DNA of 64,000 bases from a virus. Taxonomy: Duplodnaviria > Caudoviricetes. The stretch is from IMG/VR virus record IMGVR_UViG_3300036851_000198, positions 1,829 through 65,828 of that record; one strand, given 5' to 3'. This document shows positions 23,297 to 51,307 of this stretch, piece after piece. The stretch's first letter is position 1. Each line of letters begins with the position of its first letter. The position numbers were made by a program, and so were the translations under genes. The notes beneath the pieces are model-generated. The model made no database searches. It saw nothing but the letters and a program-made list of their open reading frames with translations, and was not told the origin of the DNA.

Positions 23297-23959
23297 ATGT
23301 CTAGAAGGAACAAAGTCAAGCTAGCCTTTTACAGACGGTCGCTGAAGAAATGGAGAGAGAGGCACGCCTACCGCAAGCGCAAGGCCGACATAGCTCACCA
23401 GAGAAATGACAGAAATGGCGTGAAGAAGTGGTACACTCTTATGAAGGAGGCGGGCGTTGAGATCCGCCGTCGTCGTGCTCAGATCGAAACATTGACTCCG
23501 AGGCCCAGGCCGCAGGCGCCGAAGCGCGCCCTGGTAATAGCCAAGGCTCGTTCGTACATCGGCGTTCGAGAGCGGTACTGGAATGGTGGAGGAATCATCA
23601 ATGTCTGGCAGCAGAATTTTGGTTTCGGCCGGGTGCCGTGGTGTGGCCTTTTTTGCGGCAACATGCTCCGCGCAGTTGGTATTTCGGTTCCATCTGCCAT
23701 AGCATCTGTAGCCTTGATTGAAGGTATGGCGAGGCGCAAACAAAGACCATTCAGAGGCTGGTCAACTGACGAGAAAACCGCAACAAGAGGTGATCTAGCG
23801 ATAATTGGGGGTTACGGTCAACATGTAGAGATGGTAGAGCAGGTTCATGCAGATGGATCGTTGACTACAATCGGCGGCAATACCGGCGATGCGGTTCGAC
23901 GTATGAACCGGCCGCGATCTTCTGTACGCGGCATCGCGCAGGTCAACTTCCCAGGATAA
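23297..23959 (+). CDS. endolysin, CHAP amidase/peptidase
   Basis: ARSYIGVRE, PWCGLF, HVEMVE, TIGGNT; basic N-terminal helix. Confidence 0.9.
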   Translation: MSRRNKVKLAFYRRSLKKWRERHAYRKRKADIAHQRNDRNGVKKWYTLMKEAGVEIRRRRAQIETLTPRPRPQAPKRALVIAKARSYIGVRERYWNGGGIINVWQQNFGFGRVPWCGLFCGNMLRAVGISVPSAIASVALIEGMARRKQRPFRGWSTDEKTATRGDLAIIGGYGQHVEMVEQVHADGSLTTIGGNTGDAVRRMNRPRSSVRGIAQVNFPG

Positions 23960-23968
23960 GGAGTAATC

Positions 23969-24253
23969 ATGAATGACCCAACCCCCATCGAAGGCGTACC
24001 GGCAAACTCTGATGAGGAGCTGAAGGAGATCCTCGCGCAGGAGTCTCTCAACGTACCGCCAAAGAAGCCGGATGTCACACCCACGATGTACGTTGTGGTA
24101 ATAGGCGCAATCACTCAGTTTAGCCGCGCCTTCGGGATTTGGGACGCAAGTCCCGAACAAGTCGATGCTCTGAATGTGGCTTGCGGAATGCTCGTCACAA
24201 TCGGCCTCGGAGATGTTCTGTTGCGCGGTTTCCGGAATCTCAGTCAGCGGTAG
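23969..24253 (+). CDS. putative holin
   Basis: two hydrophobic segments; lies between two muralytic genes. Confidence 0.65.
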   Translation: MNDPTPIEGVPANSDEELKEILAQESLNVPPKKPDVTPTMYVVVIGAITQFSRAFGIWDASPEQVDALNVACGMLVTIGLGDVLLRGFRNLSQR

Positions 24254-45760: not shown

Positions 45761-46390
45761 ATGTCTGTCGGCGAAGAACTGTATGAAACACTTACGCCGC
45801 TTGTACAACAGTACGGCGACCCCGACGACGCGCTACTTACATATATGACCGGCATAGGAATAATGTTTCAGCCGGTAGACGATATGGCAAAGGATGGGCC
45901 GAATGGCGAGCCTGGCTGGAGCCAGGTAATCGACCTTACACGAGCCAAGACCGAGTGGCTGCCGTGGCTGGGGCAATGGGTTGGTTACTATGTTCCGGAA
46001 AAGGCTGAATCACAAACTGATGAAGAGTATGACGAGCTTGAGCGTGGGCGGATCATATCAAGATCGTCACACCGCAGAGGATCAATCCCAATACTCCGCG
46101 AGGTTGTGCAGGAACACCTCAATGACCCCAAAGATGTAATCATCGATGAGCGAACGAGCAGTCCTCATCAGATTCACGTGTATATTTACAACACCCAGAT
46201 AGCCACAACTGCGGCGCAGGCTGAAGCAGCGGCCCGAAGACAAAAAGCCGCAGGATTGATAATGACTTTCACAATCCTTGGTCTTGGTAGCGTATCTTAC
46301 ACAAACCTACAAGCTGCAAACACGGACTATACGGAAGTCATAACTAGACACGTAGACTATACTAGTGCTTTGACGAACCCCGGCTTGTGA
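45761..46390 (+). CDS. baseplate protein (P2 gpI-like)
   Basis: WLPWLGQWVG, HRRGS. Confidence 0.85.
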   Translation: MSVGEELYETLTPLVQQYGDPDDALLTYMTGIGIMFQPVDDMAKDGPNGEPGWSQVIDLTRAKTEWLPWLGQWVGYYVPEKAESQTDEEYDELERGRIISRSSHRRGSIPILREVVQEHLNDPKDVIIDERTSSPHQIHVYIYNTQIATTAAQAEAAARRQKAAGLIMTFTILGLGSVSYTNLQAANTDYTEVITRHVDYTSALTNPGL

Positions 46391-46407
46391 TATAGACTGG
46401 AGCTTGA

Positions 46408-47217
46408 ATGCCAACTACAACTAGAGGATTTCGTTACCCGCTGGCATCGGATGCGCCGAATGTCCCGTTGGACATGCAGGAGCTTGCTGAAGACATAGAT
46501 CTGATGTGGATCAGCGGTACTCTGGCGGCTCGACCCGCGGCCAGCAAGATCGGCCGCGAGTACCTGGCTACCGACACCGGCGAGACTTTTGTTGATACTG
46601 GTAGCTCTTGGATTTACAAAGGTCGAGCGATTGGTTCCGGTGCAAACAATGTTGTTGCCGGAAACGATGCCCGTCTTACGGACCAGCGCGTTCCGACAGA
46701 TAGTAGTGTAACCAATGCCAAGGTTGCAGCGGCAGCCGCAATTGCGGAGTCAAAGCTAGCCCTGGCGTCGGACGCCGCATCAGGCACAGCGTCGCGGCGC
46801 ACTTTGGGTACGGGAGCTACACAAGCAGCAGCCGGAAACGACGCCCGTTTGTCTGACCAGCGAGTGCCAACGGATGCATCGGTTACAATAGCAAAACTGG
46901 CCACTGCCGTGCTCAACAATTTCCTCAAGCTTGCTACATCAGCAGATCGCAAGTTGGCATTTGGCACCGGAACATCTCCTGCCTTTGACAGCACTTCTGG
47001 TCGTTCAAAGGTTGCCAGTACGATTTCTCATGGCTTGGGACTTACTCCTGTTTTTGCAGTTGTTGTTCCAGGCGGCATAGCGGTTTCGGAGGCAGCAGGA
47101 CAGTACGCTCCTGGATCCGCAGTGACAGCTTTGAGCACGACGTTGATTACCTATCTCCTAACGGCACCAGGTACCTCCAATAACAGCGTAACTTATTGGT
47201 GGGCGGCGATAGCATGA
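46408..47217 (+). CDS. tail fibre protein
   Basis: GTLAARPAA, AGNDARL(T/S)DQRVPTD repeat x2, HGLGLTP. Confidence 0.8.
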   Translation: MPTTTRGFRYPLASDAPNVPLDMQELAEDIDLMWISGTLAARPAASKIGREYLATDTGETFVDTGSSWIYKGRAIGSGANNVVAGNDARLTDQRVPTDSSVTNAKVAAAAAIAESKLALASDAASGTASRRTLGTGATQAAAGNDARLSDQRVPTDASVTIAKLATAVLNNFLKLATSADRKLAFGTGTSPAFDSTSGRSKVASTISHGLGLTPVFAVVVPGGIAVSEAAGQYAPGSAVTALSTTLITYLLTAPGTSNNSVTYWWAAIA

Positions 47218-47837
47218 TGAAACGGCGGATCAGGCTGCCAACCACACCACTTCGCCGATGGTTTACCACACCAGTGGTTCCCAGACGGTGGGCGCTCGCG
47301 GCGATCGGATCGACAGCAGGAATCTTGTTGGCTGTAGCAGTCCTGAGCGCCGATCAGATTGTAGATCTGTTGCGAAAGGAACGCCGCGACGCGGTGAGCG
47401 CGGTTCGCAAGGAGGTCGTGGAGGTCAAGCGGGAGCAACTAGAGCCCGCTGAGGTCGGCAGGATCACTGAGCGTTTGATTCGTGCTAGTCAGCCTACGCC
47501 CGCGCAGACTCGCCGAGAGGTGGATCGCGCGCTGCGCCGTCTTACGGTCCGTCAGCGCCAGCACCTCCTGAACTCGCTGCTGCGGGTGGCGACGAAGCGC
47601 CAGCGGCGAATAATTCTGGGGTTGGTCGCGCCGCCTCCGATCCAGTTGAAACCCAGCGTACCGTTGCGCGCGCCGAGTCCGATTCCTCGGTCTGTGAATC
47701 CTCCGGTTGTGACGCCGCCAGTGGTTGACGTTCCGCCAATTGTACCCCAGGTGACGCCTCGTCCTCCACTTGATGACGATGGCGATGATGAGGACGATGA
47801 GGATGAGAACGACGACGAGTCGGGGAACGGTGGTTAG
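47214..47837 (+). CDS. membrane-anchored protein with Pro-rich and acidic tail
   Basis: one hydrophobic segment, helical middle, PPVV repeats. Confidence 0.6.
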   Translation: MMKRRIRLPTTPLRRWFTTPVVPRRWALAAIGSTAGILLAVAVLSADQIVDLLRKERRDAVSAVRKEVVEVKREQLEPAEVGRITERLIRASQPTPAQTRREVDRALRRLTVRQRQHLLNSLLRVATKRQRRIILGLVAPPPIQLKPSVPLRAPSPIPRSVNPPVVTPPVVDVPPIVPQVTPRPPLDDDGDDEDDEDENDDESGNGG

Positions 47838-47838
47838 T

Positions 47839-48303
47839 ATGCAAGACGATCCGGGCCAAGATGTGCAAGGAGCTGTGACTGGCGAGCATCAGAAACTAGT
47901 CATCGAGGAAACGCTGCGCCAGGTGGCGTCGCGGTCGGACCGGCGACTGTTCATCAAGGCGGCTCTGGTCGGGTTCTTTCTGGCACTAGTCGTGATGATC
48001 CCGGCGACCTGGGTGGTCGGGCTAGAGTTGGCATCTGTCGGTGATGTTGAGCGCTTGGCTTCAAGAAACTGCACTACGGTCCGTGAGATCTCCGACATCT
48101 TCGAGCAAGATGAGGTCGCCGAAGCCGCCGCGACGCGGAACTTCCTGAAGCGCGGCACGCTCGGGTTGACCAAGAAGGAGTTGGAGCAGACGCTCAAGAA
48201 CAACGCTGAGCGCGACGCTGTAAAGATTGTGCGGCTCCGCGCCTTGGCGCAGAGTGATTGTCCGAAGCCGAAGCCCGAGCCTAAGGCGAAGAAGGGTTCG
48301 TAG
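47839..48303 (+). CDS. single-pass membrane protein, lysis-accessory type
   Basis: AALVGFFLALVVMIPATWVVGL segment; extracellular Cys pair. Confidence 0.65.
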   Translation: MQDDPGQDVQGAVTGEHQKLVIEETLRQVASRSDRRLFIKAALVGFFLALVVMIPATWVVGLELASVGDVERLASRNCTTVREISDIFEQDEVAEAAATRNFLKRGTLGLTKKELEQTLKNNAERDAVKIVRLRALAQSDCPKPKPEPKAKKGS

Positions 48304-49109
48304 TGCCTGTCCTGTTGGTGTTGTTGGCGCAGGCGACACCTGCCGGTGGTGGGGTGAGTCCGTTGACGGCGGTGTTGATCGCTCTGCTGGGTGGTGGTGT
48401 GGCAGTTGCCTTGATCGACTGGTGGCGTAACCGAGGTAAGGATCGAGCGATGGAATCTCAGACCAAGGCGCAGGCCGACCAAATCGAAGCCCAACGCAAG
48501 TCGATTGTCGAGGATGTCAACGAGGTTATTTGGAAGCGAACGCAGACAGAACTAGAGCGTGCCGACAGGGAGCTGATGGATGAGCGCGAGGTTCGGCGAA
48601 TGTCTGAGGAGCGTGCCGCCAAGGAGATCGACATTGAGCGCAAGGCCCGGGCACGCTTGGAGAAGGAGGTTGAAGAGCTACGAGCACGGGTCCACAACAT
48701 GGAGGAGAGAGCGGCGGAAGAGCAGGCGACCGCGTATGCGGCGCTGCTGGAGGCGATCCCTGACGCGGTGATCCAGGCGGGCCAATACGGGCTCATCAAG
48801 GCGGTCAACGGGGCCGCGCTGAAGATGTTCGGCTATGAGCGCGGGGAGATGGTTGGTCGCGCGATCACGGATCTGATGCCGGATCGTTACAAGCCCGCGC
48901 ATCGGGCGGGCTTTGCGCAGGCGCTACTCACCGGCAAGGGGCCGTTATTGGAGTCTGACGATCCGACGCGCATCAACGCCTTGTACGCGGACGGCCATGA
49001 GTTCCAGGTGGCGCTACGTCTGTCAGCGCAGAACCATTGCTTCACTGCCGTCCTTCGCCCGTACGTCCCGCGTGACGGCGGCGAGCTACCTCTGGTAGAC
49101 TTCCTCTGA
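48303..49109 (+). CDS. membrane protein: TM + coiled coil + C-terminal PAS domain
   Basis: LLEAIPDAVI...VNGAALKMFGY..EMVG..ITDLMP..Y...H...ADGHEFQV.L.LS. Confidence 0.85.
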   Translation: MPVLLVLLAQATPAGGGVSPLTAVLIALLGGGVAVALIDWWRNRGKDRAMESQTKAQADQIEAQRKSIVEDVNEVIWKRTQTELERADRELMDEREVRRMSEERAAKEIDIERKARARLEKEVEELRARVHNMEERAAEEQATAYAALLEAIPDAVIQAGQYGLIKAVNGAALKMFGYERGEMVGRAITDLMPDRYKPAHRAGFAQALLTGKGPLLESDDPTRINALYADGHEFQVALRLSAQNHCFTAVLRPYVPRDGGELPLVDFL

Positions 49110-49224
49110 GCCCCCCCCCCCCCGGTAGCCCTGTCAGGGCCTTGTCAGACCCTCGTAGACAGCTTTCGACCGCTAATCTGGGGGTAGACCGCGGGCTAGG
49201 GGTGTATAGAGCCTCTGACATCCG

Positions 49225-49494
49225 CTACCGCTCGCGGCATTGACCGGCTGTATAGCGGCTGACGGTTGTCTTGCTGACGCCGGTGATATCCACGATTTCG
49301 GCTACGGTGTACCCACTACGACGTAGACGGACTATCCGATCAATCTCCATCGGACTGAGCTTCGCGCTACGGCCTGGATCATTGGCCCTGAAGTAGTGCT
49401 CGCGATCCCAGCGGCGCTTCTGTTCCCTGCGGCGCTCGCTGTCCGCGTGCTCGGCGTCCCATCGGATCTTCGCAGGATGTCGGTCACCTGCCAT
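49225..49494 (-). CDS. helix-turn-helix DNA-binding protein
   Basis: AKLS...IVRLRRSGYTVAEIVDITGVSKTTVSRY. Confidence 0.8.
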   Translation of the reverse strand: MAGDRHPAKIRWDAEHADSERRREQKRRWDREHYFRANDPGRSAKLSPMEIDRIVRLRRSGYTVAEIVDITGVSKTTVSRYTAGQCRER

Positions 49495-49687
49495 GCTTGT
49501 TTGTCACTCTGACCAATGCATTCTCTGCCAATTCGTATGGAGTATTGTGACCGTAGAGAATGGCGTCGTGTGTATTGTCACGGCATTATCATCCATAGCG
49601 CTTCGAACACTATCACCATGATTGCAAGGCACGCGCATATATCAACCCACGCTGATCGTCCGCCATCGACTACCATCCCTTCTTCTG

Positions 49688-50407
49688 TCATGGTAGATCC
49701 ATTTTCGGTTTCGGGAACATTGGCTCATCCTCGCCGATGCAGCGAGCTAGTCTGGTGCGCGGGTCCTCTGCCATAGCGTCGCTCGCCTTCAGACGCTCAG
49801 CGCGCAGGTGCTCGCGAGCATCAGACTTCTGTTCATCGGTAGGACTAAACACCTTTGTTCCGACGTATCTGTCGACCAACTCCGTTTCTGCCACCTCGCC
49901 TCCCCGCTCTGAGGTGGCATCAAACTCTCCTACGATGGCATCTGGTTTTTGGTTGCGAATATTCAACTCGAATGTTGGTCTCCTTGCTGCGTTGTGTTTC
50001 ATCTCGTTGAGTTTTCGATCTTCGTGCCAACCATCGACGCCGTGCTCGGCTCGCGCCGCGAGCTTTTCCAGGTTCCAGGCAGCCACTCGCTCTAGCTCGA
50101 CGCCTAGCTCGCTAGCGAGCGCAGCAACGTACCAAAGTACATCACCCAACTCGTCAATAATCTGCCCGCGCTTGACTACGGACAGGTCCGCCATTCCCCC
50201 TTCCTCTCGCCAGGACTTGCCGAGTAGCTCGGCAACCTCCCCAGCCTCGCCGTTGAGCTTGAGCACCGCATACGACATCGCTATCGGATGCGCGCCCTCC
50301 ATGGCGTGCGGATAGAACGCGGTAGCCTTCGCTCGCATCTGGTATTGGTGAAACCCCAACTTGGCTTCGGGCATTGTTGCGCTCCTTACGACTTCCATTA
50401 CGGCCAT
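49688..50407 (-). CDS. MazG-like nucleotide pyrophosphohydrolase with C-terminal extension
   Basis: LNGEAGEVAE...DELGDVLWYV...NLEKL. Confidence 0.9.
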   Translation of the reverse strand: MAVMEVVRSATMPEAKLGFHQYQMRAKATAFYPHAMEGAHPIAMSYAVLKLNGEAGEVAELLGKSWREEGGMADLSVVKRGQIIDELGDVLWYVAALASELGVELERVAAWNLEKLAARAEHGVDGWHEDRKLNEMKHNAARRPTFELNIRNQKPDAIVGEFDATSERGGEVAETELVDRYVGTKVFSPTDEQKSDAREHLRAERLKASDAMAEDPRTRLARCIGEDEPMFPKPKMDLP

Positions 50408-50788: not shown

Positions 50789-51307
50789 CTAACAGTTAGG
50801 CCAGGGCTGGCCGCCGCGTTGTGCGTGCAGGACTGCGGCTCTGCGATCTTGCTCAGCTTCTGATGCTGCTGCCGGATCGCCGGTTCCGCCGACGCTCCGC
50901 CACGTGCCCATGTCGAACTGATACTTGCCTCGGTATGTTCCGTCCTTAGACACAGCCTTCGGGTTGCCCCCTGACTCGCAGCTTGCGATTGACTCTAGCG
51001 TTGATCCTGCCTTGGCAGTTTTGGTACCAGCAGGCGGTTGCCTCGGGAACTTCGGAACAAGAAGTGGGATCATGAGTCGCCGCATGATCTTTATGCTCTT
51101 GGCAAAGTCTTTGTAAGTTGCCTTTCTCGAACTGTGTTTTGTATTCACTCCATACCTTCTGATGTTCCTGCCTGCTGCTTTGGCACCGTGCCGTTTTACC
51201 AGAACCTGCCTAACATCTGTGTACTTCTGTTTCAACGGCTTCTGTCTTGCTTGTGCCGGTGCTGCAATGGTCGGCACGATGATCATAGCCAGCATTACCT
51301 TCTTCAC
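50789..51307 (-). CDS. secreted resuscitation-promoting factor (Rpf)-type transglycosylase
   Basis: signal peptide ending AQA; IASCESGGN...YRGKYQFD..TW..VGG..PAAASEAEQ...QPWPNC. Confidence 0.9.
   Translation of the reverse strand: MKKVMLAMIIVPTIAAPAQARQKPLKQKYTDVRQVLVKRHGAKAAGRNIRRYGVNTKHSSRKATYKDFAKSIKIMRRLMIPLLVPKFPRQPPAGTKTAKAGSTLESIASCESGGNPKAVSKDGTYRGKYQFDMGTWRSVGGTGDPAAASEAEQDRRAAVLHAQRGGQPWPNC

Follow-up and report, generated by a model that had tools for sequence, protein, structure and literature searches.

A phage protein joining a membrane-anchored coiled coil to a FixL/DosP-type PAS domain, with a possible part in lysis timing

In current models of phage lysis, timing is set by the accumulation of holin together with membrane energisation. 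Two phage systems are said to bring a signal to bear on this process. Holin T of phage T4 and the antiholins RI and RIII reportedly form a signal-controlled lysis system in which the signal is superinfection, and VqmA of phage VP882 is reported to be a PAS-bearing sensor that triggers lysis through transcription. Here we examine a gene at positions 48303..49109 (+ strand) of a 64,000-nucleotide stretch of viral DNA, hereafter the window, which corresponds to positions 1829-65828 of the 65.8-kb IMG/VR virus record IMGVR_UViG_3300036851_000198. The gene encodes a 268-amino-acid (aa) protein that combines a predicted membrane anchor, a coiled coil and a PAS domain. An earlier note on this DNA had called the product a lysis-type membrane protein fused to a FixL-like sensor domain and had stated that no sensor-gated lysis protein was described, a statement that must be qualified in view of the T4 and VP882 systems. 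As our overall best explanation, to which we assign a probability of roughly 35%, the product is a bitopic protein bearing a heme-PAS sensor that adjusts lysis.

Known PAS domains of this type, in FixL and DosP, are cytoplasmic. FixL from Bradyrhizobium japonicum and Sinorhizobium meliloti (Protein Data Bank [PDB] entries 2vv6, 1xj6, 1d06 and 8js5) has in common with the phage protein the PAS fold, the L-M-P motif, a His on helix F-alpha, a helix leading into the PAS domain and a dimeric state, which for the phage protein is predicted. The phage protein differs in having no histidine kinase and in carrying an N-terminal transmembrane (TM) anchor; identity is 22-24%, and its heme binding is a prediction only. 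A second heme sensor, FG214, is a one-component regulator from Fimbriimonas ginsengisoli (10jx). In its description (PMC13060918), the crystal structure and the loss of heme in variant H156I establish H156 as the proximal ligand, and dimerisation is controlled by the state of the heme. FG214 is the best single-sequence PDB match to the phage protein, and its H156 aligns with His200 of the latter. FG214, however, is soluble, has a helix-turn-helix (HTH) output and uses distal residues H175 and M172, whereas the phage protein has none of these and is membrane-anchored.

For the membrane-anchored half, the closest described proteins are one-helix, N-out/C-in lysis regulators of actinophages, which were genetically defined only in 2026. 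LysF1b of the F1-cluster mycobacteriophages Girr and NormanBulbieJr, according to PMC13056207, has 124 aa, of which 22 form an outside segment, and further comprises one transmembrane domain (TMD), four basic residues after the TMD and an extended cytoplasmic helix consisting of about 50% Lys, Arg, Asp and Glu; its start overlaps the upstream gene, and its deletion leads to severe lysis defects. Its counterpart in phage D29, LysA2b (gp30, 88 aa), is encoded amid genes for minor tail proteins and a long way from the lysins, and an activating effect on a two-helix partner has been proposed for it (bioRxiv 10.64898/2026.08.27.747656). Residues 1-142 of the phage protein show the same build, with a short N-terminus predicted to lie outside, one TMD, basic residues and a helix of which about half is charged. 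The gene start likewise overlaps the upstream gene, as in LysF1b, and the gene sits with tail genes, as does that of D29 LysA2b. The regulators differ in their length of 88-124 aa and in having no globular domain, as against 268 aa with a PAS domain, and no partner with two TMDs adjoins the PAS gene.

Holin T of T4 offers a looser comparison, as it is reportedly a lysis protein with one helix in which a domain outside the membrane conveys a signal that alters timing. Its topology, as given in PMC13056207, is N-in with a globular periplasmic domain. The charge distribution of the phage protein predicts an orientation opposite to that of this class III holin, and there is no homology between them. 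Among published phage PAS sensors, VqmA of vibriophage VP882 (PMC8284805) comes nearest. VqmA resembles the present protein in being a phage-encoded PAS sensor that reportedly influences lysis; it differs in being a soluble PAS-HTH transcription factor with a quorum-sensing ligand that acts in the lysis-lysogeny switch, and is neither a membrane protein nor of heme type. Literature searches found no published description of membrane-anchored, heme-type or small PAS proteins of phages.

The PAS domain and its candidate heme ligand

The PAS core occupies residues 152-253 (48756..49061, + strand). A Pfam scan of the protein gives PAS-family models only, with PF00989 at 34.6 bits (cut-off 22.6) and with PAS_8, PAS_9 and PAS_4 also above their cut-offs; no output domain follows the core. 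This agrees with the earlier description of a complete PAS domain without an output domain.

The same description had likened the domain to that of FixL and proposed a comparison by hidden Markov model and predicted structure. When this comparison was made, heme-PAS entries ranked first in both respects. A phmmer search of the PDB with the whole protein returned FG214 (10jx) as the best match (E = 5.9e-10), with S. meliloti FixL (RmFixL, 1d06) at E = 1e-8, and a profile of the family placed 1d06 at the top (E = 6.2e-17), with 10jx at E = 9.7e-15. The family profile matched 18 PDB sequences at E <= 0.001. Heme-PAS domains from FixL, FG214 or EcDOS/DosP account for 14 of these, and the others are two entries of CitA PASc, one of ThkA and one of WalK. 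Comparison of folds gave a similar result. The first 18 rows listed by Foldseek (ranks 1-23) are all FixL, FG214 or EcDOS, and VIA-align gave Z scores of 16.0-17.0 for 13 FixL entries and FG214 and of 14.4 for EcDOS, the first row after the heme-PAS entries scoring 14.1. For the FixLH domain of B. japonicum (BjFixLH, 2vv6_C; Z 17.0), model residues 154-255 were superposed on chain residues 154-257 with a root-mean-square deviation of 1.3 Å over 100 residues.

The assignment of the domain to the FixL/DosP/FG214 heme type is well supported at the level of sequence and fold; it was made by nearest relatives rather than by the cluster procedure of Xing et al. (2023), in which FixL and DosP share one PAS cluster (cluster 3). 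By these comparisons the domain falls with those of the FixL/DosP heme-PAS type, yet the 268-aa protein lacks an output domain (kinase or EAL/GGDEF), continues for only 15 residues after the PAS core and is therefore neither a FixL nor a DosP protein.

The motif D-L-M-P...Y...H, whose His the earlier note had equated with the proximal heme ligand of FixL, was found in the translation of the gene. The residue in question, His200 (48900..48902, + strand), is by alignment and model a candidate for the proximal heme ligand and lies on helix F-alpha. In alignments it coincides with the proximal His of RmFixL and of B. japonicum FixL (BjFixL), which in both stands seven residues past the L-M-P motif, and with H156 of FG214; in the model it falls within a helix spanning residues 194-210. 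The question of whether homologues lack this His had also been raised. The residue is identical in all six members of the family, including one with 41% identity, unlike His232 and Cys246, both of which are altered in this most distant member. Taken together, we think it reasonably probable that the PAS domain binds heme.

Architecture, dimer model and protein family

The gene starts with GTG, which has one base in common with the TAG stop of the upstream open reading frame (ORF), and ends with a stop codon at 49107-49109 (+ strand). Residues 1-19 (48303..48359, + strand) form an uncharged, partly hydrophobic segment that includes a Gly-rich part; the segment has low predicted local distance difference test (pLDDT) values in the AlphaFold2 model and is predicted to lie outside the cytoplasm. 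A single, Gly/Ala-rich TM helix is assigned to residues 20-41 (48360..48425, + strand) from hydropathy and from the start of the model helix; the Kyte-Doolittle value is 2.33 for the segment at residues 20-38, the sole hydrophobic segment of this kind in the protein. Lys and Arg are absent from residues 1-41 and then appear as R42, R44, K46 and R48. Because these basic residues directly follow the TM helix, the positive-inside rule places the C-terminal part in the cytoplasm and thus predicts an N-out/C-in topology.

Residues 42-151 (48426..48755, + strand) consist of the four basic residues and then a charged helix, for which composition and models predict a dimeric coiled coil, parallel and in register. 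Asp, Glu, Lys and Arg make up 50% of residues 45-142. The AlphaFold2 model, which rests on a 64-row alignment and has a mean pLDDT of 87.3, shows an unbroken helix from residue 20 to residue 151 followed by a PAS fold at pLDDT 94-98. The N-terminal hydrophobic segment and long charged coiled coil reported earlier are both recovered. After the PAS core, residues 254-268 (49062..49106, + strand) form a 15-residue C-terminal tail, which is conserved in the alignment although the pLDDT of the model drops to 54-77 there. Y254, R257, L264 and D266 are identical in all six family members, as is P253, the last residue of the PAS core, and the tail is possibly a docking peptide for a partner.

A Shine-Dalgarno-like stretch is present within the gene at 48433-48452 and ends seven bases before the ATG of Met50, just past the membrane helix. 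An internal start at this codon would yield a soluble coiled-coil-PAS form; it may also be a chance occurrence, because Met is absent from this position in three of the five homologues.

Dimer formation was modelled with two copies of the protein, with heme included as an unscored passenger. The model reached an ipSAE of 0.44, compared with 0.00 for the best of three controls; in calibration, the mark was reached by 20 of 30 solved pairs and by one of 23 single chains, and this calibration is only rough because a custom alignment was used and a ligand was added. Between runs, 44% or more of the contacts are shared, and the pLDDT of the partner does not fall below 75. Contacts join residue i to residue i over positions 76-158 and also involve the sheet residues 239-250, a pattern that describes a predicted coiled coil of two parallel helices in register, with the PAS domains paired. 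Since PAS dimers of FixL have been solved (8js5), the outcome signifies likeness rather than binding and possibly reflects a memory of those structures.

Five further proteins have the full TM/coiled-coil/PAS architecture, four of them at 57-72% identity and one at 41%. These homologues (P0003-P0006 and P0079) are encoded on one contig each (55.6, 13.9, 42.1, 17.3 and 42.2 kb), and all begin at an identical point, with M-P. The family is rare, with two representatives among 1.84 billion clusters at 50% identity. The earlier suggestion that viral databases be searched for the same architecture yielded nothing further, as neither the phage database (megablast and tblastn) nor the viral_contigs and IMG/VR collections contain relatives beyond this record. 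Collections of cellular and metagenomic DNA provided candidate matches to the PAS part (96 in genome_contigs and 65 in metagenome_contigs, with search patterns that P0079-like members would escape), which are apparently cellular sensors; a few of the alignments reach into the coiled coil.

The N-terminal half was also searched for by itself. No protein shorter than 147 aa that matches residues 1-140, as would be expected of a split form, was found, and in the ESM Atlas the best score for residues 1-142 was 0.86, under the 0.9 level. A match of residues 14-130 to a kinase (P0116) was set aside as similarity of coiled coil and low-complexity sequence only.

Operon position and comparison with lysis genes

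The PAS gene is the final + strand gene before a set of convergent minus-strand genes and is located at the end of the tail-gene operon. As had been described, it follows two genes for membrane proteins. The immediately upstream gene (47839..48303, + strand) encodes a protein of 154 aa with one TM helix (Kyte-Doolittle 2.45) and, through the one-base overlap, is translationally coupled to the PAS gene. Its product, which has no homologue besides itself and no family match, is a possible partner of the PAS protein. The gene before it (47214..47837, + strand) encodes a protein of 207 aa, also with one TM helix (Kyte-Doolittle 2.12), that has a basic N-terminus, a charged helix, a Pro-rich stretch and a long C-terminal run of Asp and Glu. 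It has no match in Pfam, PHROGs or the phage database and possibly belongs to the same late membrane block as the PAS gene. Among hand-picked ORFs of at least 100 aa, just these three genes after the tail fibre gene, besides that for the tape measure protein, reach a Kyte-Doolittle value of at least 2.0.

Downstream of the stop codon, a 115-nucleotide spacer separates the PAS gene from the convergent minus-strand gene. The run of 13 C residues reported earlier was located in this spacer at 49111..49123 (+ strand), and it is the sole homopolymer of nine or more in the window. No terminator-like site was found in the region 46300-49700.

The gene's position and an architecture like that of LysF1b and LysA2b suggest a role in lysis by analogy rather than homology, and we only tentatively propose that the gene acts in lysis timing. 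The designation of the product as lysis-type is plausible from its build and position. Several results weigh against such a role. Homology to D29 LysA2b is undetectable (BLASTP E 0.07, hhalign probability 0.35%), and DUF2746 (PF10874), which matches gp30 at 26.4 bits, does not match residues 1-142 at E <= 1. No PHROG lysis family matches the protein. No lysin gene adjoins the PAS gene, the lysin-like genes being one for a CHAP-domain protein 24 kb upstream and one for an Rpf-like protein on the opposite strand at a distance of 1.7 kb. The upstream neighbour, being without a homologue, gives no sign of conserved synteny.

Other lysis-related families were also considered. XhlA (PF10779) gives no match at E <= 0.1 with the whole protein or at E <= 1 with residues 1-142. 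Matches to phrog_2658, annotated as 'hol-like chemotaxis' (E 0.001), and to phrog_1397, of unknown function (E 0.0056), cover the TM/coiled-coil part only and were rejected as too weak.

The CHAP-domain protein (220 aa, 23297-23959) is encoded between the terminase and portal genes; the Pfam CHAP model scores 29.5 bits, and matches to endolysin PHROGs are weak. Nine bases after this gene is an ORF of 94 aa (23969-24253) with two weakly hydrophobic segments and no family or phage-database match. The two genes may constitute a lysin-holin pair that, as in D29, is encoded at a distance from the membrane genes with which the tail operon closes, and the 94-aa ORF is the only two-segment candidate for a partner with two TMDs. 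The Rpf-like gene (50789-51307, - strand) encodes a secreted transglycosylase with a match to PF06737 (E 4.6e-18) and a signal-peptide-like N-terminus.

The remainder of the window is that of a contractile-tailed phage, with genes for large terminase, portal, protease, major head protein, tail sheath, baseplate J and minor tail or fibre proteins. CheckV estimates the record to be 78% complete, and its ends are linear. Among 195 records, the nearest relatives of the major capsid protein are from Gordonia, Arthrobacter and Mycobacterium phages, all at less than 50% identity. The single sequencing run listed for this DNA, probably its source, is labelled as soil metagenome, and no RNA datasets carrying the stretch were listed. 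Because of the capsid relatives, the Rpf-type transglycosylase and the soil metagenome run, the host is probably a soil actinobacterium.

A proposed mechanism, its alternatives and related phage proteins

Under the explanation that we favour, the gene would be expressed late and would give rise to a bitopic membrane protein with its N-terminus outside and its C-terminus inside the cell. A parallel coiled-coil homodimer would hold two cytoplasmic FixL/DosP-type PAS domains, which would probably bind heme b via His200. Residues 1-142, with the build of regulators that in mycobacteriophages activate a two-helix holin-like partner and set the time of lysis, would supply the output, and the PAS domains would add a cytoplasmic input, such as O2, NO, CO or the redox state of heme. 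The coiled coil could then relay a change in the PAS dimer to the membrane helices, in the way that FixL relays one from PAS to kinase, and the membrane event that starts lysis would thereby be advanced or delayed. If this is true, a sensor in the cytoplasm that carries a cofactor and is directly connected to a lysis-type membrane anchor represents a new input to the lysis decision, and its natural fusion to such an anchor would suggest that the cytoplasmic helix of the one-helix regulators is a signalling element. A more elaborate version, in which a LysF1b-type activator fused to heme-PAS allows the phage to read the respiration of its aerobic actinobacterial host and shift the time of bursting, with the Rpf-like gene perhaps serving the same hypoxic-dormancy strategy, is speculative and in our judgement unlikely.

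The heme component of this mechanism can be questioned on several grounds. A His on F-alpha is common, occurring in 818 of 1073 PAS repeats from 148 top representative proteins and in 130 of 145 cellular loci, although the latter had been selected through a motif in another part of the domain. The His characterises a very large subfamily, some of whose multi-PAS proteins have up to 13 repeats, for which universal heme loading is unproven. The phage protein has no counterpart of the distal His or Met of FG214 or EcDOS. With regard to other pocket residues, we rely on assumed roles for R206, H214, I215 and R220 of BjFixL, the last of which we take to be the Arg that begins strand G-beta and makes contact with a propionate or bound O2. 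The positions aligned with R206 and H214 vary within the family. R223 is identical in all six members, lies in a model strand at residues 222-227 and may stand for the pocket arginine of FixL, but the FG loop of the phage protein is two to three residues longer and HMMER puts R223 in a two-residue insertion relative to RmFixL, so the equivalent of Arg220 is uncertain. Moreover, 40% of the sequences in the FixL cluster are without the His, and heme has been proven in few members (Xing et al., 2023). Of these observations, the share of cluster sequences without the His, the small number of members with proven heme, the wide occurrence of the His in multi-PAS proteins and the variation at the positions aligned with R206 and H214 speak for an alternative in which the PAS domain binds another ligand or none and functions mainly in dimerisation or clustering, with a late role as a lysis accessory, in superinfection exclusion or in some other process that does not involve sensing of O2 or redox state. 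Its weak points are the retention of His200 down to 41% identity, where His232 and Cys246 are not kept, and the fact that the top fold and sequence matches are all heme-PAS domains; we regard it as rather unlikely.

The protein could also act on host signalling, by pairing with a PAS sensor kinase or cyclase of the host and blocking or re-tuning it, with no direct part in lysis. The lack of an output domain fits such a modulator, as does the use of PAS and coiled coils as dimerisation modules, for which the homodimer model passes, and among cellular proteins the PAS part is closest to the PAS repeats of histidine kinases and sensors of a similar kind. No cellular PAS exceeds 43% identity, however, and the matches are spread across many phyla, hence no host partner stands out. 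The N-terminal half is confined to this small family, and the gene is in a late operon rather than among early host-takeover genes. We therefore judge this alternative unlikely. An artefact, either a chimeric assembly or host DNA joined to phage DNA at the C13 run, was a concern of the earlier note. It is prompted by the position of the homopolymer right after the stop codon and by the G+C content at third codon positions (GC3), which is 0.79 in the PAS part and 0.68 in the N-terminal part. The major capsid gene, however, has a GC3 of 0.74, similar to that of the PAS part, and the run is located past the stop codon, with phage genes resuming beyond it. In addition, a Logan contig from a second assembler, probably made from the same reads, covers 47200-49700 including the C13 run with no differences. 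Chimeric assembly is excluded because five other contigs independently encode the same full-length architecture, and we consider any such artefact exceedingly improbable.

Small proteins with PAS as the sole recognised domain appear elsewhere among viral sequences. BFVD contains PAS-only phage proteins of 169-205 aa, and the ESM Atlas clusters nearest to the whole protein (scores 0.91-0.94) are almost all virus-only PAS sets of 183-229 aa, one of which has 1142 members. These are leads only, as they come without an alignment, and they suggest that uncultured phages often encode small PAS proteins. A separate arrangement was observed in a 266-kb IMG/VR phage (locus L147, 8907-10732), in which an 87-aa protein with the build of LysF1b, whose short N-terminus precedes a single membrane helix and then a charged one, is encoded 336 bases upstream of a 408-aa protein that has three PAS_9 stretches and, by eye, no membrane segment. 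The three-PAS protein is unrelated to the family described here, and the pair may represent, in split form, what is fused in the 268-aa protein.

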